Shown: positions 1 to 60,104, numbered from the stretch's first letter. The stretch: 64,000 nt of DNA from Nitrosarchaeum sp. (GCA_965223865.1 OZ245020.1:1408001-1472000), one strand, 5' to 3'. Translations and numbers: made by a program. The notes: a model not told the origin generated them from the sequence alone.

Positions 1-654
1 GAATCCTATTGTCTTGTAGCTGCATGGAGGGAACCAACACCAAAAGATTTTGAAAAAGTATGTAAAATTATTTCTGATGTTAATGAGAAAGTTGGAATAA
101 GTATAGAATGTAGTTTAGGATTTCTAACATCAGAACAAGCAAAAAAACTCAAAGAACTCAAAGTAAAGAGATACAATCACAACTTGGAAACTGCAAAATC
201 AAAATTTGCTGAAATTTGTACTACTCATACATATGATGACAGATTAAAAACACTAAGAACTGCAAGGGAAGCAGGATTAGAATTATGCACTGGTGGAATT
301 ATTGGTGTAGGTGAAACACGAGAACAAAGATTAGAATTAACTTTAGAGTTAGCTGCAATTTTTCCTGAAGAAGTAACAATCAATATGTTAGTTCCTGTCC
401 CTGGAACACCACTTGAACTTCAAACTCCCCTATCAAATTCAGAAATTGTAAGAATGTTTTCAGTGATTAGATTTTTGCTTCCCGAATCAGTCATAAAGAT
501 TTCAGGTGGTCGTGAAACTAATCTTGATGACTCTGGAGAAGAATTGTTGCAAAGTGGTGCAAATGGGATTATTACTTCAGGATATCTTACAATGGGCGGA
601 AATGATGCTAGAAAAGACATCAAAATGATTAAAAAAATCGGTCTTGAAGCATAA
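1..654 (+). CDS. bioB: Biotin synthase (radical SAM), 5'-truncated by the window edge
   Basis: Frame is open from base 1 (ESYCLVAAWREP...YNHNLET...CTGGIIG.GE...GYLT), typical BioB motifs; adjacent to bioF. Confidence 0.93.
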   Translation, partial: ESYCLVAAWREPTPKDFEKVCKIISDVNEKVGISIECSLGFLTSEQAKKLKELKVKRYNHNLETAKSKFAEICTTHTYDDRLKTLRTAREAGLELCTGGIIGVGETREQRLELTLELAAIFPEEVTINMLVPVPGTPLELQTPLSNSEIVRMFSVIRFLLPESVIKISGGRETNLDDSGEELLQSGANGIITSGYLTMGGNDARKDIKMIKKIGLEA

Positions 655-22133: not shown

Positions 22134-22797
22134 CTAAACAGGAGTCTTTGAATACAAAGAAGATACAACTGATTTAGCTATTTTTCTTCTAAAGGAAATC
22201 TTGTAAAATATTAAAACACCGAAAAGCTCCAAATACTCTACAAAACCGACAGTGTAAAAATGCAAGAGCCATCCATCAAGCATTTGATCAATTGATGCAA
22301 TAGCTGCACTCATCTGTGGAAATGCTGTAAGAAAGGCCATAGGAATCATCAAAAAGCCAGAAAACCAATCAGAGGCATTCATATCCTTTGTAGATTCTAA
22401 GACTTGTTCGGTTGATTGTAAAGGAGTATTTTGAATATTTTGAATTTTTAAATCAGAATAAACTGTATTGCCTTGGTCTATTGCAAATATCATGCCACCT
22501 AATATCAAAAGAAGAAATACAGATTCTCCAAAAACTATCAGCCCACGTTTGCCTTTTTGGAATTTGTACATTTGTCTCTCCAACATGGGGCCAAAAAAGC
22601 CTAGCTTTTTCTTCTTTGCAAGTATGATTACTAGAATAGAGATTGCAGATATAACGCCTAGAGATCCCCACCAATTATCTGAAACATATTCAACAAAAAG
22701 AAGTCTTGCAGGTAATAGCAATCCAGCCATTACAGAAAATACAATTAAGGACTCAAAAATGCCTCTCAAAGGTATTTTCCTCGAAGAATTGTTTCAT
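22134..22797 (-). CDS. Multi-TM membrane protein; either TTG start at 22769 or ATG 22797 with a +1 frameshift
   Basis: Hydrophobic ORF; promoter geometry points to ATG 22797 (MKQFFEENT / LRGIFES). Confidence 0.65.
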
Positions 22798-22819
22798 AAT
22801 TGGTAGGTGTGAGCAATGC

Positions 22820-22854
22820 ATATAACTATGGACACTAGATTTAACTAGTGCTAA
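22820..22854 (-). promoter_or_regulatory. TTAGCACTAG-box promoter
   Basis: Distal box 22854-22845, degenerate proximal box 22835-22826, TTATAT. Confidence 0.7.
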
Positions 22855-22971
22855 CTTTTTAGATTATGAAAATAAATTTTTCTTATATTGATGAATTTTT
22901 ATGGATTTTTTTAGAAAAAAGCATCAACAATAATGTGGTTCTTTGAGTTCAAAAGCACCTAATTAGGATGA

Positions 22972-24360
22972 CTATTCCTTGTTTGATATTTTTTTGAAAA
23001 TTTCTTTACTGTATGATGATTCAGATTTATGTTCAATCATAGGTTTGGGATAATCTATATTTTCTGGATATTTTGTATCCAATGAATGAATTACTTGAGA
23101 GGGTAAATTTTCAAGTTCAGCAATCCATTTCTTTATGTAGATACAATCAGAATCAAATTTTTGTTGTTGGAGCCAAGGATTGAATATACGAAACCAGGGT
23201 TGGGCATCACATCCGGTAGATGCTGCCCATTGCCAATTTCCAATATTTACACTAGGATCATAATCCACTAGCTTTGAGGCAAAATACCAATCACCCCATC
23301 TCCAATCAACATGCAGATCTTTAGTAAGAAATGAGGCAACTATCATTCGTACCCTATTATGCATAAAACCAGTGGCATTTAGCTCCCTCATTCCAGCATC
23401 CACTATGGGAAATCCAGTTTTGCCCTCACACCATTTTGTAAATGCTTTTTTGTTTTTACTCCAAGGAATTTTCTGATATTTTTTATTAAATTCTTTTGAA
23501 ATACTATATGGATAATGGTGCATTATGTAAGTGAAAAAATCTCTCCAATGAATCTCAGTTATCAGAGTATGTGTTGGTCCTAACTCTTGTAAAATTTTAT
23601 GATAAACTTCTCGTATAGAGCATGTTCCAAATCTATTATGGGCAGACAGCATAGATGTACCATTTATTGCTGGAAAATTTCTATCATTTTTGTAATTTTT
23701 TAGATTTTTTAGATTATTCATTAATCGTAGAGACGATTTTCTTCCTCCTCTAAAAGATAGTTTATCATTGTTTTTTCCAAGATACGTCTCTAATTTATCA
23801 ATGGTAATCTCTGATTTTATTTTTTGATTTGAAAGATTAGAAAATTGAAAATTTTGTGGTTTTCTTACAGGTAATTCCTTAGCTTTTGAGAAGAATTGTG
23901 TAAAAATTTTGTAGGGTTGTCCTTTTAATGTCTTGATCTCCTCTACATCATGAAGAAGTAAATCATTTGTTGTAATAAAATCAACTTTGCATTTCTTACA
24001 AACTTTCTTTATATTTTCGTCTCTTTTCTTGCTAAAAGGGGTATAATCAGCATTTACAAAAACTGCATCAAGTTTCAACAAGTTAATTAAATTTTCAATA
24101 ATTTTTTCAGGTAATCCAGAAAAAACATGCAAATACGATTTCCTGGTTTGCAATTGTTTGTTAAGGTCCATTAGACATTCATGAAGAAATTGAAGTCGAA
24201 ACTTGCTAAATTTTGGATTAGATTTTTGTGATAATTTTGGATCAAGAATAAAACAAGGAATGGTTTGAATAGAAGATTTGTTTGCCTCAATCAATCCCGT
24301 ATTATCAATCAGTCTGAGGTCACGTCTAAAAAGGAATAATGATTTTTGATATTTCTTCAT
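22972..24360 (-). CDS. phrB: Deoxyribodipyrimidine (class I CPD) photolyase
   Basis: FRRDLR..DN, TS.LS....FG..S.R, G.TG.P.VDAGMREL..TG.MHNR.RM..ASFL.KDL..DW, N.G.WQW.AS.G.D, RIFNP. Confidence 0.93.
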   Translation of the reverse strand: MKKYQKSLFLFRRDLRLIDNTGLIEANKSSIQTIPCFILDPKLSQKSNPKFSKFRLQFLHECLMDLNKQLQTRKSYLHVFSGLPEKIIENLINLLKLDAVFVNADYTPFSKKRDENIKKVCKKCKVDFITTNDLLLHDVEEIKTLKGQPYKIFTQFFSKAKELPVRKPQNFQFSNLSNQKIKSEITIDKLETYLGKNNDKLSFRGGRKSSLRLMNNLKNLKNYKNDRNFPAINGTSMLSAHNRFGTCSIREVYHKILQELGPTHTLITEIHWRDFFTYIMHHYPYSISKEFNKKYQKIPWSKNKKAFTKWCEGKTGFPIVDAGMRELNATGFMHNRVRMIVASFLTKDLHVDWRWGDWYFASKLVDYDPSVNIGNWQWAASTGCDAQPWFRIFNPWLQQQKFDSDCIYIKKWIAELENLPSQVIHSLDTKYPENIDYPKPMIEHKSESSYSKEIFKKISNKE

Positions 24361-24368
24361 TGTTTTAA

Positions 24369-24803
24369 TTATAAAATAAGAATAGGACAGTGTGCATTTC
24401 TAAACACATTCTCAATGGTGCTATGATAATGCATTTTTTCATATGTAGAAGAAAGTTTTGTCTTTGTCATTATTATTAGATCTACGTTGTGCTTTTTAGC
24501 AAAATCAAGTATTAGCATAGATGCTAATCCATTTTTTACAGTTTTAGAACTAAAAGAAAGGTCATGCTTTTTGGCAAGTTTTTCTAATTCTAAATGCTGT
24601 TTTTCAACTAATTTGCGTTCTTTCTCAAACTCTTTTTTGCTTGTTTTTGTTTTGAAAAACCCAAACGTTGGTCGTTCTTCCAAACAGGTAAGAACAGTAA
24701 TCTGGGAATTGGTTGATTGTGATAAAACAAGGGCTTTTTTGAATGCCTTTTGGCTTCCTGATGTTCCATTATAAGGTACCAGTATATGTTCGAAAGTTTT
24801 CAT
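24369..24803 (-). CDS. Universal stress protein
   Basis: ILVP..G...S..A, DLIIM, A.CPIL; upstream of phrB in the same orientation. Confidence 0.85.
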   Translation of the reverse strand: MKTFEHILVPYNGTSGSQKAFKKALVLSQSTNSQITVLTCLEERPTFGFFKTKTSKKEFEKERKLVEKQHLELEKLAKKHDLSFSSKTVKNGLASMLILDFAKKHNVDLIIMTKTKLSSTYEKMHYHSTIENVFRNAHCPILIL

Positions 24804-24955
24804 TGTCTCTTTTCTTTAAGCGCTAGTAAAATAGGATTTGATCTGTCATTTATTCCAATTTTATAATGGTATATAGATATTCACCATAATAGAACTGTTT
24901 AGAGATTTATCTAGAATAACAAATTATTTTACCACTGTAATATTTTTTTCAGAGA

Positions 24956-25231
24956 TTAGACAGTATCTTTATTCTGTTTGTCTCTTATGATTTTTGCAAG
25001 TGTTGATGCAATATTTTTTGCAACATGTTCAGTTGCAACACTGATTTTTTCATCATCTAACTCTTCTTCAATTCTTCCCATTACTGGCTTTAGAATTTTA
25101 TCAATAAAATCGGAACCATAAATTCTGACATATCTATCATAGACTTGGAATGAAGATTTGATGTCTCCCTGTGTTAACTTTTCATATAATTTATCCATGA
25201 ACTGTTTTTCTTTGATTGTGTTTGACACCAT
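24956..25231 (-). CDS. Stand-alone B12-binding cap (four-helix) domain, CarH/AerR-like
   Basis: L..GD, IL.PVM..I, ISVATEH; lacks the Rossmann B12 domain and the usual Trp. Confidence 0.7.
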   Translation of the reverse strand: MVSNTIKEKQFMDKLYEKLTQGDIKSSFQVYDRYVRIYGSDFIDKILKPVMGRIEEELDDEKISVATEHVAKNIASTLAKIIRDKQNKDTV

Positions 25232-25449
25232 TTTAACAAAATTTGCTTGATGTTGTTAAAGATGATCTTAACAGGAATAATTTTCCTTTAAGAATAATGA
25301 ATTATTCCTTTTTTATGACACAATTTTAAAATTAACATACTAGTTCTCATAATTTTCCTGAATTTGGATTCAATGAATAATTGTATATGAAGTAATGAAA
25401 AATTGAAAAAGTCAAAAATTCTTATTATACTGTAATTGGATGGTACTAT

Positions 25450-25884
25450 TTGTTGACAGAAAAACGAATAATGGTAGGTTTGGATGGCTCTAAAGATTCT
25501 ATTCGTGGGCTAAGAACTGCAATTTTGTTTGCAAGACAATCAGACGCCATGATTGTTGGTGTTTATGTTGATACTTCACAAGGGGCAATAAGAGCAATGT
25601 CTGCTCCAAAAATAAAAGAAGAAAAATGGTCAAAGGAAACAAGGAAAGTAATAGAATCTGCCAAAGAAAAAGCCAATATCAGGGGCGTGAAATTTGAAGG
25701 GATAGTTATTGCAGGATATAAGCCTGGAAATGATTTAGCAAATTTTGCAAACAATCGAAAAAATAAGATCGAACAAATGGTTATAGGTTCAAGGGGTTCT
25801 GGATTTCCAAAAGAAAGGTTTTTGGGAAGTACGGCTAACTTTATTTTGCATAAAGCAAAAGTACCAGTTACCGTAGTAAAATAA
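25450..25884 (+). CDS. Universal stress protein
   Basis: IMVGLDGS, VIGSRG, LGSTA, VPVTVVK. Confidence 0.9.
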   Translation: MLTEKRIMVGLDGSKDSIRGLRTAILFARQSDAMIVGVYVDTSQGAIRAMSAPKIKEEKWSKETRKVIESAKEKANIRGVKFEGIVIAGYKPGNDLANFANNRKNKIEQMVIGSRGSGFPKERFLGSTANFILHKAKVPVTVVK

Positions 25885-26019
25885 AATCAAAGCAAGAAAG
25901 TTTAACGAATCAAGATAAATAATACATACTCAAAAATATTAATCAAATTTTCTAGTGCTAAGAATAAGAAATGCAAATGATCCTTTTAACCAAAGAATTC
26001 CAAGTTAATTTGAAAAAAT

Positions 26020-26148
26020 ATGAAAATTAGAATTTCAAATAGATGCTCCACTTGTAAAAAAGAATTTCAAAACATGAAAAATCAGTATTGTTCTATAGTA
26101 TATGAAACGCTAGATATATCTTGTAAGATTTTTAAATATACAAAGTAA
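26020..26148 (+). CDS. Possible Cys microprotein, degenerate paralog of 30078-30188
   Basis: MKIRISNRCSTCKKEFQNMKNQYCS... Confidence 0.35.
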   Translation: MKIRISNRCSTCKKEFQNMKNQYCSIVYETLDISCKIFKYTK

Positions 26149-26221
26149 TAAAAATTTGCATACAATTCAATTTTGCTTTGTTAGTTGATTCAAATAATAT
26201 TAGATAGAATTGATTTTTGTT

Positions 26222-26575
26222 TCAAGATTGAAACAAAAATTCTTTGATATTTGTTTTTGTAATTTGATAATCAGGATTGGCTTGTTGAATAAGTTTTGCA
26301 ACTAGACCCAATGCCTTTTTTACACCATCAGTTTTCTCCGGATCCGTACCAGGATACAATCTTACCGTAGTTTTATCTTTTCTTGTAGAAAGTTCAATTA
26401 AAAATTGTTGATGCAGTTTGTCAATTACTACTGTTGGAATTAGAGCTGTTCTTTTTTCAGTATCTAGAAATACATTGAGCAATTTTATCAGATAGGGTTC
26501 TTTTAGCATAGTTTCCTCAAAGTCCCGCGAAAAAACTTCAAGATCAATTTTTTTATCAAATACTACATGTGGCAT
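26222..26575 (-). CDS. Hypothetical protein
   Basis: MPHVVF...TTVRLYP.TDPEKT.GVK; GGAGG upstream of ATG 26575. Confidence 0.75.
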   Translation of the reverse strand: MPHVVFDKKIDLEVFSRDFEETMLKEPYLIKLLNVFLDTEKRTALIPTVVIDKLHQQFLIELSTRKDKTTVRLYPGTDPEKTDGVKKALGLVAKLIQQANPDYQITKTNIKEFLFQS

Positions 26576-26588
26576 GCTTATTCCTCCA

Positions 26589-26768
26589 TTAAACACTGAA
26601 TAGTTGTCTCTTGAAATCTTGCACAAAAATTGCCAATTTACAACTTTTGCAGGCTAACAAATCTTCATTTTTTGACTTTATTTTCGTAGTTACCAAGACT
26701 AATTCAGGCCTTCTACAGTTAGGGCAATCTGCCACCAAATCTCTTCTGTTTGAGTATTCTAAGTTCAT
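26589..26768 (-). CDS. 59-aa zinc-ribbon protein (not in ORF track), paralog of 59913-60104
   Basis: MNLEYSNRRDLVADCPNC...LLACKSCKLAIFVQDFKRQLFSV*. Confidence 0.8.
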   Translation of the reverse strand: MNLEYSNRRDLVADCPNCRRPELVLVTTKIKSKNEDLLACKSCKLAIFVQDFKRQLFSV

Positions 26769-26789
26769 AATTAGTATAGCTCAAAATAT

Positions 26790-26825
26790 TATTTAACTAG
26801 GGCCAATATTATTTTCTAGTGCTAA
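26790..26825 (-). promoter_or_regulatory. TTAGCACTAG-box promoter
   Basis: TTAGCACTAG-N9-TTGGCCCTAG-TTAAATA. Confidence 0.75.
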
Positions 26826-26885
26826 TTTACTATCAAAAAGATGAATTAAATTTAAAAAAAAATAAAATAGTTTGGCAATTAGTTT

Positions 26886-27470
26886 TCAGTAACTGCCGCT
26901 TTTTGAAGCCCACTCATTCTTTGAAAGGTCAATGCTGGTTCTCAAGGTTTCATTGATTGTTTGTACTGCCTTTCCTATCACCATGGGACTGATTGAGAAA
27001 AATCCCCTGAATCGAGCATCCCCAATATCTTCTGCAACTAGACCAAACGGACCGTATTGCCCTTTGGTTATTACCATCCACATATCTGAGATGTTTGTTC
27101 CAACGCAACTTATTACCTCAGCTGTTTCGGGGAGATTTTGAGCCAAGAAAGGATTGTTAAAATTCCCAACAATCCAAGTTTTCGGTAGATGTTTTAGAAT
27201 TTCGATGTAGCGATCCTCTACATATTTGTAGAGAGACTCAGTCTCAAATGTTGCAAGCAAGGGAGCATTATTTTTCATGGCATATTTTTCCAGCATAATA
27301 CTTAGACGGTAAAGCGACTTCCTTCCTGTTTTGAAATTAACATATCCTGCGTTTATGAAGTCATCTAATGACCAATTCATCAAATCAGAATCATCAGTAG
27401 GATCTCTTTTTGCCAGTGCAGGAAATTTGCTCCAGACTTCATCTATGAAACTTGTGTACTTTAATTCCAT
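26886..27470 (-). CDS. Stand-alone DICT-like sensory domain protein
   Basis: L..LS...E..A, L.ATF, RY..I, W.V, LVAE, F.GF...P..: pattern typical of DICT. Confidence 0.7.
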   Translation of the reverse strand: MELKYTSFIDEVWSKFPALAKRDPTDDSDLMNWSLDDFINAGYVNFKTGRKSLYRLSIMLEKYAMKNNAPLLATFETESLYKYVEDRYIEILKHLPKTWIVGNFNNPFLAQNLPETAEVISCVGTNISDMWMVITKGQYGPFGLVAEDIGDARFRGFFSISPMVIGKAVQTINETLRTSIDLSKNEWASKSGSY

Positions 27471-27490
27471 GACTTAATACCGTTTTTATT

Positions 27491-27528
27491 ATATATATTA
27501 TAGTGATAAATCTCTAAACTAGTGCTAA
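27491..27528 (-). promoter_or_regulatory. TTAGCACTAG-box promoter
   Basis: TTAGCACTAG-N9-TTATCACTAT-AATATATAT. Confidence 0.75.
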
Positions 27529-27584
27529 ACAGTTAAACTGTGAGAATAAGGATACTATTTTACCAATAACAATCCAATTAGATC

Positions 27585-27848
27585 ATGAGACAAATTTTTG
27601 TTGCACTTGTAGTTTGCATTCCTTTAACATTGGCCGCATTATTTATTGTAAATAATGTACTCTCAGATACCTTTCCATTGTTTAGAGAAGATCCAATGAA
27701 TGAATTAGATTTTATCAAGCAAACCTATGAGGCAGGATTAGATCATTGTGAAAACAACTATGATAACGTTGAAAAAATAAATAAAATTGAAGAATATAGA
27801 GAATGTATTGATTCAGTAGAAATATGGTATTTGGAAAATTCAAAATAA
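27585..27848 (+). CDS. Small membrane-anchored hypothetical protein
   Basis: N-terminal TM; Cys pair in the soluble part. Confidence 0.65.
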   Translation: MRQIFVALVVCIPLTLAALFIVNNVLSDTFPLFREDPMNELDFIKQTYEAGLDHCENNYDNVEKINKIEEYRECIDSVEIWYLENSK

Positions 27849-27905
27849 TCAATTTAAATTTCCAATAAAAAAAATTTACTTTAATCAAATTTCAAGTCAA
27901 ATCTG

Positions 27906-29282
27906 TTAAATTGGTCTTCCTTTGTATTGATAGTCAATTACCTTATGAAAAGTATTGTGTGATGCTATAACCGCTAATGCAGCCAATGCAGCCCAAATAA
28001 AGTTTCTAATTGTAATCCATTCGTTTGGCTGATTAATTATTAGTGAAGTATCAAATATGACATAAAAGTTATCAAACAACCAAAAGGCCAAAGTTATCCA
28101 GGATAATACGCCAGCAATGAGAAACCCCAATCTTGTTTTGTTTCTAACAAAAATTATTGCAGCAATTATTGCAATGTACCAAATAACTCCTCCTAAAATC
28201 CAAACAGGTTCAAATATCTCAGGACGGTCATCTAACCAGTAATAAGTAGTTCCAAGAATTGCCATTGCAAATAATGATGCACATAAAAGATTTTGATTGA
28301 TTTTAAACCCAGAACGTTCTTCTCTTGGTGGTGTGGAGGGAGGGTTTTCTAGTATTTCTTTTGTTGCAATATCAATGGCATCCTTAACGGATTTGAGTTT
28401 TAATGGAATGATTTTTGATATAGAATCATCTGTCACCACCGTATCATGAACAAGGCTATCAATTAATGGCCTAGCAAGAGAGGCTTTTACAGGAGTGATT
28501 AAGTCGACCCAGTATGAAGAAAGTCGAGTGGTAAGAAAAGGAATTTGAATAACAAATAGTCTTTTATCTAGATATTTTGCATATACTCGCATTAGTTCTT
28601 CATATGTCATTTTGTCTGAGCCACCAATTTCATAGATATGTCCGGCTGTTTTTGAATTCTCCATACATCCTGTAAGATATTCTATAACATCATCTACTGC
28701 TATAGGTTGTGCAATAGACTTTACCCAGGAGGGACAAACCATCACTGGTAATCTTTCCACCAAATATCTCAACATTGCATAAGAACCCCCTTGAGCCCCT
28801 ATAATCAGGGATGCTCGCAGTTCTGTTACGGGTATTTTTCCAGATGCGAGAATCTCGCCAACCTCCTTTCGACTTTTCATATGTGGGGATAATTCCAGAC
28901 TATCATTAACAAGGCCGCCAAGATAGATTATTCTTTTTACACCAGCTTTGGTTGCAGCCTCAAGAAAGTTTTCAGCCTGAATCATTTCTCGTGAGGCAAA
29001 TTCTTTCCAATTCTCCTTACTGCCTTCCATGGAATGAAGCAAGTAATATGCAATCTCAATTCCACTTAAAGCATCTTCAAGCTGTTTTGAATCAAAAACG
29101 TCAGCCTTAACATATTTTACTTTTGCAGTATCAGGAATTTCTCTTCTAGACATCCCCTTTACATAATATCCTTTTTTTGAAAGATAAGATATTAAACGAG
29201 ATCCAATAAAACCAGTTGCACCTGTAACTAAAATATTGTATTGTTTGTGTTTTTTACTAGTATCAGTTGACTGTTGGGACAT
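27906..29282 (-). CDS. NAD(P)-binding atypical SDR (YbjT-like) fused to a C-terminal membrane domain
   Basis: ILVTGATGFIG, AYYL.HSM, ELRA..I.G, QPIA..DV; about 4 C-terminal TM segments. Confidence 0.85.
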   Translation of the reverse strand: MSQQSTDTSKKHKQYNILVTGATGFIGSRLISYLSKKGYYVKGMSRREIPDTAKVKYVKADVFDSKQLEDALSGIEIAYYLLHSMEGSKENWKEFASREMIQAENFLEAATKAGVKRIIYLGGLVNDSLELSPHMKSRKEVGEILASGKIPVTELRASLIIGAQGGSYAMLRYLVERLPVMVCPSWVKSIAQPIAVDDVIEYLTGCMENSKTAGHIYEIGGSDKMTYEELMRVYAKYLDKRLFVIQIPFLTTRLSSYWVDLITPVKASLARPLIDSLVHDTVVTDDSISKIIPLKLKSVKDAIDIATKEILENPPSTPPREERSGFKINQNLLCASLFAMAILGTTYYWLDDRPEIFEPVWILGGVIWYIAIIAAIIFVRNKTRLGFLIAGVLSWITLAFWLFDNFYVIFDTSLIINQPNEWITIRNFIWAALAALAVIASHNTFHKVIDYQYKGRPI

Positions 29283-29970
29283 TTCTACTTAATCCTTTCA
29301 TTTTTCTTTTTCGTATTATAATTAGGAGGATAATTCCAGGTATTGCAATTAATATGCAGAAAAAGATTGCAATGGAGGAATAATCATTTACTAATATCTT
29401 TGTATCAAGCCATGCTTTAGGCAAAATTGAAAAAAAATCAGTTCCTGAAAAATCTTCTATTGTTCCTATCGCCAAGCTATACTTGCCTGCTTGATTTTTC
29501 TCATCTAACACTATAACAAAATATTTACCCTCAGTAGTAAGTGTGGTTTTTATCTCCTGCCTTTCCCAATATGTTACCTGGCCAAAAGGTTCATAGAATT
29601 CTCTTCCTGGAAATTCTCCATCATACACAACTTTTTCCATGACTGCGTGACTATCCAGTAGAGAACTATCTTTTTCAAGATAACTACCATTTAACAAAAT
29701 GAGAGTGGGTGAATATTCTTCCAATCCTGAAATTTTTGGAACAACTATACTAGCATAAAATGAATCACCAGGTTTTGCATAAAATGAATAGAATTTTTTC
29801 TCAGTTGAGCCCAGATTTTCGTAGACGGCCCAGGAAATTTTATGGTCCGGAATCTCTAAGGCCATCTCTAAACTTCTGTGCGTATCATCGTGACTAATTA
29901 ACTTGTGTCCATATGCGGGACCTATTGAAATAGTTAACAAAACAAAAAGTCCAATTATAATTTTTTTCAC
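29263..29970 (-). CDS. Exported protein with C-terminal TM anchor
   Basis: Signal peptide ending AYG/H, FYEPF, GKY.LAIG..E.F; GTG start at 29970. Confidence 0.75.
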   Translation of the reverse strand: MKKIIIGLFVLLTISIGPAYGHKLISHDDTHRSLEMALEIPDHKISWAVYENLGSTEKKFYSFYAKPGDSFYASIVVPKISGLEEYSPTLILLNGSYLEKDSSLLDSHAVMEKVVYDGEFPGREFYEPFGQVTYWERQEIKTTLTTEGKYFVIVLDEKNQAGKYSLAIGTIEDFSGTDFFSILPKAWLDTKILVNDYSSIAIFFCILIAIPGIILLIIIRKRKMKGLSRNVPTVN

Positions 29971-30020
29971 ATGAATAATATTCAGAAATAGTATTTTAAT
30001 ACCACTAGAACCTTCGCTGG

Positions 30021-30060
30021 TTAGCACTAGTTTCAAACTAGAGTAGTGTTCAAATATAAA
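30021..30060 (+). promoter_or_regulatory. TTAGCACTAG-box promoter
   Basis: Perfect box 30021-30030, TCAAATATA at 30050, ATG 30078. Confidence 0.65.
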
Positions 30061-30077
30061 AAAAACAAAACATGATT

Positions 30078-30188
30078 ATGAATTTAATTTCAGTCCAAAA
30101 ATGCAGTAAATGTAAAAAAGAGTACCAAGATTGGTCCTGCGATTACTGTTACACAAAGTATATGATTAAACTAGTGGAAGTGAAATGA
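30078..30188 (+). CDS. 36-aa CxxC-CxxC microprotein (not in ORF track)
   Basis: MNLISVQKCSKCKKEYQDWSCDYCYTKYMIKLVEVK*; ends 1 nt before the next ATG. Confidence 0.7.
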   Translation: MNLISVQKCSKCKKEYQDWSCDYCYTKYMIKLVEVK

Positions 30189-30189
30189 T

Positions 30190-30624
30190 ATGCAAAGACT
30201 AGACAGTAAAAAAATAGATCATATCGTCCCAGATACTAAAATTCCCATAAGACTTGGTTACATTAAGCCTAACGGTAATCCAGCTATAATTTCTCTTTGG
30301 TATGTGTGTATTGAGGACATGATATATTGTGCTACCCAAAAAACAGCAAAAATTGTGTCATTCCTTGAAAAAAAACCAGTGTGCGGTTTTGAGATAGCAG
30401 GCGATAAACCTCCATACAAAGGAGTACGAGGTGAAGGAACAGTCAAAATTTTGGATGAGAAAGGCAAAGAGATACTTGATATTTTAATTGACAAATATCT
30501 TGGTAAAAAAGAATCAACGCTATCTCAATTTCTGAAAAATAACTCTAAAACAGAAGTGGCAATTGAAATCACCCCACAAAAAATTTTCAATTATGACTAT
30601 TCTAAAAGAATGAAAGATGTTTGA
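30190..30624 (+). CDS. Pyridoxamine 5'-phosphate oxidase-like (FMN/F420-binding) protein
   Basis: G.P...SLWY, PPYKGVRG.G, W/YDYS. Confidence 0.8.
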   Translation: MQRLDSKKIDHIVPDTKIPIRLGYIKPNGNPAIISLWYVCIEDMIYCATQKTAKIVSFLEKKPVCGFEIAGDKPPYKGVRGEGTVKILDEKGKEILDILIDKYLGKKESTLSQFLKNNSKTEVAIEITPQKIFNYDYSKRMKDV

Positions 30625-30627
30625 AGC

Positions 30628-30759
30628 ATGAAAAAAGACCATGGCTGTCCCACTTGTGGTTCTAAAAACATTGGAAATTTAGAGATGCAAAAAAATAAAG
30701 ACAATACTGTCACATGGAAAAACCAGTGTTATAATTGTAAAAAGTTTTGGTACTCATAA
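30628..30759 (+). CDS. 43-aa zinc-ribbon microprotein, TFS/TFIIS C-ribbon-like (not in ORF track)
   Basis: MKKDHGCPTCGSKNIGNLEMQKNKDNTVTWKNQCYNCKKFWYS*. Confidence 0.7.
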   Translation: MKKDHGCPTCGSKNIGNLEMQKNKDNTVTWKNQCYNCKKFWYS

Positions 30760-31044
30760 TAAAATCAAATTTCTTTCTAGTGCCAAAATTATTATTTTTT
30801 CAAATGATGTTATATGATACATTGCTCTTCCCAAGTTATTTCTATCTTCTAGTTTACATCTATCAATCCAATCATTTGCCTCACGCCTTAACGCTCGTTT
30901 AGTTTCGGATAATGGAACCTTAATTTTTGCGTCAGTCCTTTTGCTATGCCATAATATGTCTCCTGCAGTATTACTAATTGCTGTCAACCTGATCGAACTG
31001 TTAAAATCCATTAGCATGTTGAGAAGTTTCTCATACCGACCCAT
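30754..31044 (-). CDS. DUF6659/roadblock-like protein, probably C-terminally truncated
   Basis: Similar to 53713-54093 pattern (IR..AI....G, LG...Y....EK). Confidence 0.55.
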   Translation of the reverse strand: MGRYEKLLNMLMDFNSSIRLTAISNTAGDILWHSKRTDAKIKVPLSETKRALRREANDWIDRCKLEDRNNLGRAMYHITSFEKIIILALERNLILL

Positions 31045-31142
31045 TAGTTAGAATATTCCCTCAGAGAATAAAAACAGTTTGGTAATTGCTGGAAAAAAAA
31101 TTTGAAAGATTAACTTAAATCTTATATTAAAAATAAGACATT

Positions 31143-31688
31143 ATGGAAATTCCTTATACTGGATTTGTTAAGCAAATATGGGACGAATTTCCACAACTTG
31201 CTGAATGGCACAGGTTTGATGATTCCAATCTTCCAATGTGGAATTTAGATAAATTTGTAGAAGCAGGATATCACAACTTTTTGGCAAATAGAAAACCGCT
31301 CTATCATCTTAGTAAATTAATTGAAAAATATGCCCAAGAAAACGGTGAGCCATTACTTGCAACATTTGAAGAAATTGCTAGGTACAAATTCGTAGAAAGG
31401 AGATACCAGAAAATGATTGAAAATATACCCAAAATTTAGATAGTCGCTGATTATGGGAAAACTGAAATCCAAGTACCTCCAAAAATGGAAATCCTAAATT
31501 GTCGTAACACAGAACTATCAAATGTTTGGACTGTTTTTACAAGAGGACCCTATGGACCTTTTGGTTTAATTGCAGAGGAGTTTGAAGATGGAAAGTTTAG
31601 AGGATTTTTTACACTCAACCCAAATGTTTGCAGATACTCCCTAAAATTAATGGGCAAAATATTAGGCACTAAATTTACAATTCAATAA
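31143..31688 (+). pseudogene. Second DICT-like paralog interrupted by an in-frame TAG
   Basis: Two same-frame ORFs colinear with 26886-27470; TAG 31437-31439 sits at the Trp position (PKI*IV vs PKTWIV). Confidence 0.8.
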
Positions 31689-31785
31689 AGTTCTGCGCCA
31701 AGTCAAATATTTAAAAAACCTAAATCTGAAATTATTTCCAAATATTCGATATATCAGAAATTAAAAAATAATAAAAATAAAAAAA

Positions 31786-32169
31786 TTAGTTGTGTCGTGG
31801 AGTTGCTTTCCCTGTAACCTTTACAATATCAGGATCTGAGCAAATTGTTTGAACATTTTTGATGCTCATCAAGCCTGAAAAGATTACACCGTCACCCCAT
31901 CTGCTGGTAGTTACCTCTATTGGATATTTGTCTCTGCCTTCTTCTTGTTTTTGATGAAGGTCTACTCCATCTTTATAGTAGACATAGAGATTCACATGTG
32001 GAATATCTGGGCCTACATATTTTTTGAGACTTACCTGATACATCATTACTTTAATGAGAAGTTCAGGATCTACTTTGGGCATTGCCCGAACAACATCCTG
32101 GAAGAACTGATTAAAATAGGGTTCAACACTGACAGGTTGTTCTTTTATTTCTTGGACTAACGCGGTCAT
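31786..32169 (-). CDS. Hypothetical protein
   Basis: 127-aa ORF with a box promoter. Confidence 0.75.
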   Translation of the reverse strand: MTALVQEIKEQPVSVEPYFNQFFQDVVRAMPKVDPELLIKVMMYQVSLKKYVGPDIPHVNLYVYYKDGVDLHQKQEEGRDKYPIEVTTSRWGDGVIFSGLMSIKNVQTICSDPDIVKVTGKATPRHN

Positions 32170-32191
32170 GATATATAGTAGTCGGAAATAC

Positions 32192-32227
32192 TATTTAACT
32201 AGTGATAAATTTGATAACTAGTGGTAA
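32192..32227 (-). promoter_or_regulatory. TTAGCACTAG-box promoter
   Basis: TTACCACTAG-N9-TTATCACTAG-TTAAATA. Confidence 0.75.
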
Positions 32228-32246
32228 TTTTATTTACTTGTTACTA

Positions 32247-33124
32247 CTAATTCCTTACCCTATTTCTAATAGTAACAGCACTTATTCCAGAAGCCATTGA
32301 GATTTTCATTTGTGAAACTTTTTCATGATTTTTTTGAACAGCCAGATATATTGATGCAGCTGCCATGGCCATAGGATGCTTACCATCAGATATTCCTGCT
32401 TTTTGACCTAATTTCAAAATCTTTCTTGCATCGCGTTTTGTTTTTTCAGACACTGAAACTTCATTTGAGATACGTGTTATGAATTCAGTTGGATCATAAG
32501 ACGTAGAATGTAGATCAAGGTCAGTAGCGAGAAGACGATAAAGGCGATATATTACCTTCTTTTTTACTCCTCCAACTCGGGCAACATCATTTATGGTTCT
32601 GGGGGTATCAGTAAGACGACAAGCAATGTAAACAACAGTACATAAAACAGCTTGATTTGAACGGCCAGGAAGAGTTTTTTTTGTTCAACTTTTCTGAATA
32701 GATATGCAGATTTTTCTACCACATGTTCTGGCAATGCAAGTTTGGAACGTATACCATCAAGTAAAGTAAATGCCTTTATGAGTGACTGCTTAGTTATAGC
32801 ATGTCTGCTGTTTCGGTCCCACATTCTCAGACGATAAAATGACCGCTTATTATCACCTGAAATTGGCTTGCCAGTAGAATCTTTGTCTTGAGCCTGAATT
32901 AAAGTAGATAACCCCATATCTGCCATCTTTAAGGAGATTTTACGGCCAGTTCTTGTATTTGTAAGATATTCTTCTTTGGTCTGACCAGCTGGCTCTGGTC
33001 CAAAATCAATTATTTTTTCAGATATTACAACCCCACAATTATTACATGAAATTTCTCCTGTAATTGCATCGGTTACAAGTAAGGCATTTTTACAATTTTT
33101 CTGGTGCAGTGATTCATTTGTCAT
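32247..33124 (-). pseudogene. tfb: Transcription initiation factor IIB paralog, frameshifted at an A8 run
   Basis: Zn ribbon TGEI.C..CG, MGLST.I, RLR.WD; the -1 frame continues GRS..IACR..TPRT; G..P..AAA.IY, VTIRNR. Confidence 0.88.
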
Positions 33125-33292
33125 CTTTTTTTCCCTACCAATAATTAGTATTCACAGAATTTTAACCACAAACCATTTTTTTTACATGATGCTAAGAAAA
33201 TATATAAAAAAATAAATGAGCATAATGCTATTTTTTCATTTAAAAGAAATAACTAAAGAAAATTGTAAAATAATTAAATATTTTTAAAATTA

Positions 33293-33655
33293 TTAAGAAT
33301 CAAGTTGTATGGAATATACAACATATTTTCCTTTTTTGGCACTAAAAATTCCAATTAGTTTTGCCATTATTCCATATTTTTTATTTCTAAGAGCAATTGC
33401 TTTTTCTGCTAAATCTCCTTGAATTAGTTTAGCTTTTCCTGAATGCCATTTGCTTTTTGGTTTTCCTGAAAAGTTGGATACGGCAACATTTACTTTATTG
33501 TTATTTGCTATTCGTTTCACTTTTCCAGTAAATTCTCTTGTAACAATCCAAATAAAATTATCAAACTCTACAAACCATACAGGAGTCTTTACAGAATTTC
33601 CTTTTTTTCTAAAAGTTTCCAGTACAATATATTTTTCATTTGGAAAAATATCCAC
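33293..33655 (-). CDS. PPOX-class F420-dependent enzyme (Rv2061-like)
   Basis: Y..LETFRK.G..V.TPVW, TGKVKRI.NN..V. Confidence 0.85.
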   Translation of the reverse strand: MDIFPNEKYIVLETFRKKGNSVKTPVWFVEFDNFIWIVTREFTGKVKRIANNNKVNVAVSNFSGKPKSKWHSGKAKLIQGDLAEKAIALRNKKYGIMAKLIGIFSAKKGKYVVYSIQLDS

Positions 33656-33715
33656 AAAATAATTTCATTTTAAAATAATGTAAAGGTTGCCAGGAATCAT
33701 AATTCCCTATTCAAA

Positions 33716-33751
33716 TTAGCACTAGTCTAGTTGTTATCACTAGGTTAAATA
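33716..33751 (+). promoter_or_regulatory. TTAGCACTAG-box promoter
   Basis: TTAGCACTAG-N8-TTATCACTAG-G-TTAAATA. Confidence 0.75.
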
Positions 33752-33772: not shown

Positions 33773-33958
33773 ATGGCAGAAGAACAAGAATGGGCAAATT
33801 TACTTGCCGAAGTCTTTGACAAGCTTACACAAAAGCATGCCTCAATCACTTATGATTTTGAAGATCTGGAGATGAAAGGCAAAGTCGAAAAAGAGGGCAA
33901 GATAATCCCAACAGGTACGGTTTCCTTAACTGGAAGGCTGACAATTACCGCAAAGTAG
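33773..33958 (+). CDS. Small hypothetical protein
   Basis: 61 aa, leaderless geometry from TATA. Confidence 0.7.
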   Translation: MAEEQEWANLLAEVFDKLTQKHASITYDFEDLEMKGKVEKEGKIIPTGTVSLTGRLTITAK

Positions 33959-33968
33959 TGGGTGTGGA

Positions 33969-34334
33969 ATGAAAGAGATAAACTTCCCCGCTAATTTTTT
34001 AACTTTTCTGACAAGTGGAAGCATCAAGATAACAAATGATTGCGTCCCATCAATTAATTTTACAGCAACAAAAGACACTCGAATTATTGACATTATTCAT
34101 ATTCCAGTCACAATTTCAGGCAAGCCTGGTTTAATTAAACAGCTATCTGAAGCAAAGAGTCTTGCAAAAAATCTGAAACAAGAAAATATTACACTTGAAA
34201 TCAGATTTCAAGGTAATCCCGTACTAAAACTAGGAGAAAAAGCAAATCCAAAACTTGCAAAAATTGTCACATTAAGTAGTGATATTGAAATTACAGATTT
34301 GAAGAAACTAAAAAAATTAAGTGATTTAATTTGA
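33969..34334 (+). CDS. Hypothetical protein
   Basis: 121-aa ORF co-oriented with the previous gene. Confidence 0.7.
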   Translation: MKEINFPANFLTFLTSGSIKITNDCVPSINFTATKDTRIIDIIHIPVTISGKPGLIKQLSEAKSLAKNLKQENITLEIRFQGNPVLKLGEKANPKLAKIVTLSSDIEITDLKKLKKLSDLI

Positions 34335-59912: not shown

Positions 59913-60104
59913 CTAGGTGCTTGAAAGTAATTTCTTGTATTCCTCAACAGGAGTGACAAATTTGCATGTCTTACAAAATAAGACCTCTTTATTCACCATG
60001 TCACTAATGGATGTAGGAATTTTTCCACAGTATAGCGACTTGTTTTCACAATTAGGGCATCTTGCCAACAAGTGATTCATTCCATATTCATTTGTCATAT
60101 TCAT
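59913..60104 (-). CDS. Zinc-ribbon protein, paralog of 26589-26768
   Basis: L.A.CPNC...L.CK.CK....V..YK..L. Confidence 0.75.
   Translation of the reverse strand: MNMTNEYGMNHLLARCPNCENKSLYCGKIPTSISDMVNKEVLFCKTCKFVTPVEEYKKLLSST

Follow-up and report, generated by a model that had tools for sequence, protein, structure and literature searches.

A 64,000-nucleotide stretch of the genome of Nitrosarchaeum sp. (GCA_965223865.1 OZ245020.1:1408001-1472000; hereafter the window, with positions counted from its first base) contains a 10-nt word, TTAGCACTAG, that recurs in front of gene starts and raises the question of what it controls and which protein reads it. Six exact copies of this box are present in the window, at 22845-22854(-), 25952-25961(-), 26816-26825(-), 27519-27528(-), 30021-30030(+) and 33716-33725(+). 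A first-pass annotation of positions 22,820 to 33,751 had interpreted the box as the sign of an undescribed regulon, read by an unknown activator or by an alternative copy of the archaeal basal initiation factor TFB. We find that a dedicated regulon marked by the box is real and conserved across genera, and that the box is a genuine control site before a set of genes in ammonia-oxidising archaea. It is most likely the docking site of a vitamin B12 light-sensor protein, whose gene lies ~400 kb outside the window.

The box is rare and strongly clustered. In the genome of this window (G000; 2.01 Mb, 34% GC, main contig C1) only nine exact copies exist, six of them within this 11-kb stretch. With at most one mismatch allowed, the window holds 13 copies where 2.92 ± 1.73 are expected, and none of 100 dinucleotide-preserving shuffles reached 13. 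All six promoters have a TATA-like element that begins at +29, counted from the box's first base, and an ATG at +57 (22797, 26768, 30078, 33773) or +58 (27470, 32169), which confirms the geometry first proposed. The positional bias was examined on contig C1 using boxes with up to one mismatch, an offset of +28..31 for the TATA and one of +55..60 for the ATG, with 40 random permutations of the box as a control. The 117 sites include 12 with the TATA, 17 with the ATG and 9 with both, while the permuted boxes average 124 sites, 2.6 with the TATA, 16.0 with the ATG and 0.33 with both (maximum 2). Since nine doubly phased sites stand against 0.33 in the permutations, the observation is real and non-random, and the positional enrichment that the first-pass annotation had proposed to test genome-wide is borne out on this contig.

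The constant distance to the start codon, taken there as a rule of the regulon, is observed but has a simpler origin. The genome contains 368 copies of TTAAATA, which are followed by an ATG at +28 in 28 cases and at +29 in 26, compared with ~7 at neighbouring offsets. This roughly fourfold enrichment indicates that leaderless promoters, with a start codon 28–29 nt past the TATA and a transcription start predicted from that spacing, are a general habit of the organism. The 57–58 nt between box and ATG are thus the sum of the box-TATA phasing (29 nt) and this general geometry, and no separate rule is needed.

We aligned 50 promoters on the box (15 from this genome and 35 from 20 others) to define the operator. 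The sole other box-like position in direct orientation is at +19, with a mean of 5.54 matches out of 10 against a background of 2.70 ± 0.22, and 36 of the 50 promoters have at least 6/10 matches at +18, +19 or +20 (8, 26 and 2 promoters, respectively). The consensus is aTTAGCACTAG..aAaaaatTTa.cactagTTAAATA. Counted from the ATG as start, the distal repeat occupies -57..-48 and the proximal repeat -38..-29, where it lies on the TFB recognition element (BRE) and touches the TATA. A second copy had been reported at five promoters of the window; it is clear (at least 7/10) at four of them (26806, 27509, 32208 and 33734), but weak at 22854 (5/10) and absent at 30021. The TATA of the box promoters is a near-consensus TTAAATA, and ordinary promoters of the genome show a faint A-rich BRE only. 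Judged by these elements, box promoters would be strong and leaderless, the kind that needs repression rather than help. Two copies of the same word in direct orientation suggest an oligomer whose DNA-binding heads point one way. The box is almost certainly a functional operator.

A second island of box promoters, ~400 kb from the window at C1:1810-1815 kb (locus L001), holds the gene of the candidate reader, a 280-aa protein with B12-binding domains (C1:1810951-1811790). The promoter of this gene has the arrangement TTAGCACTAG-N8/9-TTAGCATTAG-TATA, with ~20 nt to the start codon and the box ~57 nt upstream, in 28 of 30 genomes; the two exceptions have the gene directly behind another gene. 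The pair of repeats is kept down to 53% protein identity, and also in a GC-rich genome in which the flanks are unrecognisable.

Box and regulator also co-vary across the family. We searched 151 genomes of the family with a composite box-TATA pattern, using the reversed pattern as a control and a full-length orthologue (E<1e-50) as evidence of the regulator. The 65 genomes with a regulator have on average 4.32 pattern hits versus 0.55 for the control, and the 86 genomes without it have 0.40 versus 0.69 (three unpublished genomes, G077, G092 and G093, are among the 86 and enter the tallies only). In 11 of the 13 genera that include both states, the regulator-bearing genomes are richer in hits, and the other two genera tie at zero. 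Window targets travel with the regulator gene. The gene for a 194-aa protein at 26886-27470 is found in 16 of the 151 genomes, from eight genera, and all 16 carry the regulator; the box pair stands at the same distance before 11 of 12 orthologous promoters, down to 46% protein identity. In genus g13, no copy of a 61-aa window gene was found in five genomes without an intact regulator, and another genome, G141, has the gene at 90% identity, behind a box. At the regulator loci of 20 genomes, the strict pattern detects the box at 13 of 15 genes for a neighbouring secreted protein and at 14 of 20 regulator genes. The likely reader is thus not the unknown activator of the first-pass annotation: the box tracks a gene whose product can be assigned to a known type of sensor, and is found in that gene's own promoter.

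Pfam recognises two domains in the regulator, B12-binding_2 (PF02607; E = 1.4e-10, residues 82-152) and B12-binding (PF02310; E = 3.5e-13, residues 164-250). The motifs W128-x9-E138-H139 (Wx9EH), which caps the adenosyl group, and E173-x-H175-x-x-G178 (ExHxxG), which contains the lower-axial histidine, are invariant in 20 orthologues sharing 52–100% identity. Together they define the CarH-type photoreceptors in the relevant passages of two papers (PMC8156234, PMC9304148). When the family profile was compared with the PDB, photocobilins came first (8j2x/8j2w, 3e-20); photocobilins and CtMerR range from 3e-20 to 8e-16, followed by CarH at ~2e-13. The AF2 model of the regulator has a mean pLDDT of 88.2, and all of the Foldseek matches listed (ranks 1-45) are B12 domains of CarH, photocobilins or CtMerR, with TM scores of 0.82–0.86 to the Thermus protein TtCarH (best match E = 4e-13, TM 0.86). 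The sensor module is therefore, by its sequence signatures and modelled fold, of CarH type, with a four-helix bundle and a Rossmann fold. Public names of the orthologues, in Nitrosopumilus and Nitrosarchaeum, are uninformative ('cobalamin-dependent protein', 'response regulator receiver', 'histidine kinase', 'MtbC1'), and the stored ESM Atlas homolog belongs to the same archaeal B12-binding clusters only. At E≤1e-40 over the full length, the regulator was found in 21 of 34 further genomes of the family and in none of 216 genomes that represent 41 other families of the phylum.

The N-terminal head of the regulator has a different character. Even at E≤5, Pfam finds nothing in residues 1-80, neither the MerR winged-helix domain nor any other. 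In AF2 models the head consists of three long β-strands (residues 2-9, 12-23 and 28-39; pLDDT about 90). No part of the protein is better conserved, and a count from the alignment of 20 orthologues gives its 40 residues a net charge of about +6. A profile of the head retrieved 283 representatives from 1.84 billion proteins. We scanned the domain architecture of 22 of these, which comprise three fusions to HNH endonucleases (P0334, P0371 and P0378), one to AbiEii (P0359), three B12-binding proteins, 13 proteins without a Pfam domain, one weak match to DUF7203, and one ankyrin-repeat protein that matched through short repeated stretches and was disregarded. An N-terminal sequence pattern is plainly common to the head proteins fetched, including several proteins of 170–180 aa that belong to no known family. 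As to a suggested link of the head with the IS1634 transposase, no transposase occurs among the 22 scanned, and a tblastn comparison of the 68-aa head with plasmids was negative. In this genome, tblastn revealed no paralog of the head. From its conservation, charge and domain fusions, the head is presumed to be the DNA-binding domain; fusion to nucleases supports such a role, though it is no proof. It looks like a small nucleic-acid-binding module that has not been described before.

Together with the co-variation and the regulator's own promoter, these features make it probable that the regulator reads the box. CarH and the class I LitR proteins of Thermus thermophilus, Bacillus megaterium and Myxococcus xanthus, as presented in passages of PMC9304148 and PMC8156234, are adenosylcobalamin-dependent photoreceptor repressors; in the head-to-tail dimers of CarH, the DNA-binding heads point one way. 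The archaeal protein resembles them in its four-helix bundle and Rossmann B12 module, in both signature motifs, in having TtCarH as its best fold match, and in a direct-repeat operator that overlaps the core promoter, including that of its own gene. It differs in having a three-stranded β-sheet head with no solved relative in place of the MerR winged helix, in its archaeal host and restriction to one family of the phylum, and in that no carotenoid pathway is evident among the box targets. Photocobilins and CtMerR (PDB 8j2w/8j2x, 8jbs/8jbt), described in part of PMC11796333, combine a CarH-type module with various output domains. They provide the best sequence-profile matches to the sensor module, but are bacterial, with biliverdin-binding, GGDEF or MerR partners.

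In the model we propose, the operator would be read by a family-specific archaeal regulator in which a β-sheet head is joined to an adenosylcobalamin photoreceptor module of CarH type. With B12 bound, the regulator would oligomerise head-to-tail in darkness, as CarH does, and occupy both direct repeats, the box itself (TTAGCACTAG, -57..-48) and, 19 bp on, the degenerate copy at -38..-29. The oligomer, lying over the BRE and TATA, would keep TFB and TBP off the strong leaderless promoters. Light would photolyse the cofactor, whereupon the oligomer would fall apart and ~15 promoters would fire. On balance, we lean somewhat towards this full model of a dark-state repressor released by light.

Several observations weigh against the model or its parts. 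Among the sequencing runs listed for the organism, four from a single study contain the stretch, and none is on record as RNA. The head has no convincing structural relative, as the best Foldseek match in the PDB has E = 0.28 and a wide VIA comparison gave at best Z = 4.8, to ribosomal PSRP-3-like chains, which is unusable. The operator is not that of CarH, as 10-bp repeats with a 19-bp period over an archaeal BRE/TATA replace tandem 11-bp repeats over a -35 element. The distal repeat is better conserved than the proximal one and lies upstream of the BRE, the usual site of an archaeal activator, and four promoters of this genome (30021, 1814375, 188724 and 619401) have the distal copy only. 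A photolyase-USP operon adjoins the window island, and in this genome no box accompanies it. Among the 65 regulator-bearing genomes, 11 have no hit to the strict pattern; these mostly have divergent regulators, and some have TATA variants outside the pattern. In one genome, G073, four good box promoters are present and no regulator gene was found in the 120-contig assembly. Contig C84 of that assembly opens 19 nt ahead of the secreted-protein gene; the regulator, two genes further on in G000, would fall beyond the contig end, which makes its absence weak evidence. Finally, part of the co-variation is the joint loss of an island that holds both the regulator gene and many boxes. This explanation is countered by the window island, which sits ~400 kb from the regulator gene.

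The alternative that survives best keeps the same regulator and operator and reverses the sign: an activator bound to the distal repeat would recruit TFB and TBP, with the genes on in the dark or in the B12-bound state and off in the light. Archaeal repressors such as MDR1, Phr and TrmB bind over the BRE and TATA, and activators such as Ptr2 and TFB-RF1 bind upstream of the BRE. As with those regulators, the position of the site relative to the BRE and TATA predicts occlusion or recruitment of TFB and TBP; the present regulator belongs to an unrelated protein family, and its signal would be a photolabile cofactor. The Ptr2-type activator invoked by the first-pass annotation is consistent with the superior conservation of the distal box, with the promoters that have no proximal copy, and with CACTAG in the BRE position, which is unlike the weak A-rich BRE of the genome. 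Yet 36 of the 50 promoters also hold a copy over the BRE, and their TATA boxes are near consensus, which favours a CarH-like repressor, a sign of regulation that we infer from this architecture. Moreover, the proximal copy is strongest in the promoter of the regulator gene itself, as fits negative autoregulation of the kind seen in CarH, and the genes concerned (PPOX-like, FAD oxidoreductase and DUF1722, with photolyase and USP adjoining) fit light-induced protection. An activator is therefore unlikely.

A second alternative concerns the signal. The regulator could sense cobalamin supply or redox state instead of light, with the regulon following B12 status. The B12-binding fold is common to non-photoreceptor corrinoid proteins and MetH, and ammonia-oxidising archaea are B12 producers. 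However, the Wx9EH cap motif, which defines adenosylcobalamin photoreceptors in the section of PMC8156234 concerned, is invariant; the nearest PDB sequences and folds are photoreceptors, ahead of MetH and corrinoid proteins; and no gene of B12 synthesis or uptake was seen among the targets. We regard a B12-status sensor as improbable, and a light sensor remains the preferred reading.

According to a third alternative, also raised by the first-pass annotation, the alternative TFB encoded nearby would read the box as an extended BRE, so that the promoters would form a class with their own initiation factor. The annotation was correct in placing a TFB paralog among the targets. The paralog of the window (32247..33124(-)) is broken by one frameshift near 32663-32681 (tblastn frames -3 to -2) and could be a pseudogene or a sequencing error; its orthologue in G073 has an intact frame of 302 aa. 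TFB paralogs are present in both islands, and that of the second is intact and lies behind a box promoter. The proximal copy falls exactly in the BRE position, and G073, where the B12 regulator was not found, keeps both boxes and TFB. On the other hand, TFB orthologues (E≤1e-90) occur in only 18 of the 151 genomes, 16 of which have the regulator, the others being G073 and the 72%-complete G009. No such orthologue was found in 15 of the 31 regulator-bearing genomes with at least four box hits, including the single-contig G064. In addition, a TFB cannot reach the identical repeat 19 bp further upstream, which is the better conserved of the two. Given its absence from 15 of the 31 box-rich genomes and the frameshift in the window copy, TFB is an optional target and not the reader, a role we consider very unlikely for it.

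Where present, TFB may instead form a second regulatory tier. Part of PMC11519972 describes LitR of Streptomyces as a B12 photoreceptor that controls the ECF sigma factor LitS. The box regulon likewise includes a spare basal initiation factor, which suggests by analogy a two-step cascade like that from LitR to LitS. The archaeal factor differs in being a TFB and not a sigma factor, in being optional and in being broken in the window.

The last alternative, that no regulator exists and the boxes survive from duplicated promoter cassettes or from a mobile element spread in variable islands, is hardly credible: the sites do cluster in two islands with broken genes (a TFB with a frameshift, and the 194-aa gene's paralog in two pieces), but flanks are unconserved outside the box, proximal copy and TATA, the exact phasing holds across at least eight genera with downstream protein identities of 46–100%, and genomes without the regulator are at control level.

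About 15 box promoters are present in this genome: six in the window, five or six in the second island and a few scattered. The first promoter of the window has its distal box, TTAGCACTAG, at 22845..22854(-) and a TATA, TTATATG, at ~22819-22825. Its geometry is as described, but the ATG at 22797 cannot be counted as the start of the gene behind it: it opens a 13-codon open reading frame (ORF) that runs, in a different frame, across the TTG start (22769) of a 211-aa membrane ORF at 22134-22769. An orthologous box promoter is present in two other genomes, with the ATG also out of frame in one (G030) and in frame in the other (G003).

The second promoter (26790..26825(-)) comprises the distal box at 26816-26825, the proximal copy TTGGCCCTAG at 26797-26806 and the TATA TTAAATA at 26790-26796. 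It precedes a gene for a 59-aa zinc-ribbon protein (26589-26768(-)) and then an overlapping 134-aa ORF (26222-26626(-)). A paralog of the 59-aa gene at 60104 (35% identity, E = 5e-9) had been noted for a box exactly 57 bp upstream. That geometry is right, but the 7/10 box is below the threshold of the position weight matrix and cannot be distinguished from chance.

The third promoter (27492..27528(-)), with the distal box at 27519-27528, the proximal copy TTATCACTAT at 27500-27509 and the TATA at about 27492-27499, serves the gene of the 194-aa protein (26886-27470(-)). This protein belongs to no known family. Its earlier label as a DICT protein (Pfam PF10069) is not supported, as it has no Pfam match even at E≤5 and 120 listed homologs carry no precomputed Pfam domain. 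A second copy of the gene, split into ORFs of 98 and 67 aa (50% and 39% identical to the product of 26886-27470), lies at 31143-31688(+); an in-frame TAG is reported in it and no box stands in front.

The fourth promoter (30021..30056(+)) has the distal box at 30021-30030, the TATA TCAAATA at 30050-30056 and no clear proximal copy. The spacing had predicted a microprotein gene at 30078, and this prediction holds: the 36-aa product (30078-30188(+)) has four cysteines and is followed by a PPOX-like gene (30190-30624(+)). In G073 the microprotein is kept (76% identity over 33 aa), again preceded by a box and directly before the PPOX gene.

The fifth promoter (32192..32227(-)) has a variant distal box, TTACCACTAG, at 32218-32227, the proximal copy TTATCACTAG at 32199-32208 and the TATA TTAAATA at 32192-32198; it precedes the gene of a 127-aa protein (31786-32169(-)), and orthologous sites are present in G030 and G073. 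In the sixth (33716..33751(+)), the distal box at 33716-33725 is followed by TTATCACTAG at 33734-33743 and the TATA TTAAATA at 33745-33751. The genes behind it encode the 61-aa protein (33773-33958(+)) and a 121-aa protein (33969-34334(+)), and box-bearing orthologues exist in G073 and G141.

Two copies of the box, reported as orphans, do exist, but have no TATA at +29, and their number fits the chance expectation. The exact copy at 25952..25961(-) also has no ORF at +57 and is probably not a promoter. The other, TTGGCACTAG at 30777..30786(-), lies inside the 3' end of a 96-aa ORF (30754-31044). Photolyase was rejected as a direct target: in addition to its operon here, the sole neighbouring photolyase in 20 regulator loci is without a box.

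The window also encodes, at 24956..25231(-), a stand-alone four-helix-bundle protein of 91 aa, similar to B12-binding_2 and 51% identical to residues 78-157 of the regulator. Leucine replaces the tryptophan of Wx9EH, and no box precedes the gene; the protein could be a modulator or a remnant. Stand-alone ORFs of this kind adjoin second copies of the regulator in G102 and G126, and the ESM Atlas contains a 100-member archaeal cluster of similar four-helix-bundle proteins.

In the second island, boxes with the same geometry are located at C1:1810224(-), 1810894(+), 1813194(-), 1813876(-), 1813910(+) and 1814375(+). Their targets are a secreted 302-aa protein, the 280-aa regulator, an FAD-dependent enzyme resembling amine oxidases and desaturases, an SRPBCC protein (in an operon), small proteins, and a zinc microprotein with the intact TFB behind it. 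A DUF1722 gene adjoins that of the regulator, the order in this genome being secreted-protein gene, DUF1722 gene, regulator. The secreted protein (L001:4258-5166(-) and paralogs) is the most constant target. Its N-terminal part contains two copies of a VPAWVKNNAGWWADG module, which reaches at least 15 scored matches per genome across the family. No comparable box was found at secreted-protein promoters of regulator-less genomes, though these sequences are strongly diverged. In one such genome, the promoter of the orthologue (L064, G016:C123:7261-7760) has a different direct repeat, AGAGCTGGCACCAA, twice, 39 bp apart.

Single box promoters outside the islands are found at C1:188724(-) and 619401(+). 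A further site at C1:1985290(-) (locus L003, near 5290), close to the contig end, combines the box, a proximal copy and a TATA-like TTAACTA, and is conserved in G030. No ORF lies behind it and no Rfam match was obtained; the promoter might drive a small RNA. The exact box at C1:478544 was left out of the count, its TATA being at +22 instead of +29.

The distribution of known B12 photoreceptors gives these observations their context. CarH homologues are said to be spread 'across diverse bacterial taxa' in a passage of PMC8156234, and the word 'archaea' is absent from the main text of a 2024 paper that mined B12 photoreceptors (PMC11796333). In the full-text literature, supplements and subscription journals aside, we found no description of a B12 photoreceptor, light regulon or box motif in Thaumarchaeota or any archaeon. 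We are evenly divided on whether ammonia-oxidising archaea have here their first light-sensing gene circuit, and archaea their first B12 photoreceptor, with a CarH-type sensor on a new β-sheet DNA-binding fold shutting ~15 leaderless promoters in the dark from direct repeats over the BRE and TATA. In some species, light would in addition turn on a spare TFB, which would parallel the bacterial LitR-LitS cascade. The material for deciding is inexpensive: one small soluble protein, a 40-bp operator, ~15 promoters, and natural congeners with and without the gene. If the model is true, B12 photoreceptors would be extended to archaea, together with a new DNA-binding fold that is also found on HNH nucleases, and the system would provide a compact green-light-responsive module for promoters of the TBP/TFB type.

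Ammonia-oxidising archaea, the drivers of marine nitrification, are inhibited by light. To our knowledge, no light sensor or light-controlled regulon is known in them. The regulator would then be the first known light switch of these light-sensitive organisms, and its patchy presence, in 65 of 151 genomes, would mark the lineages able to respond to daylight.

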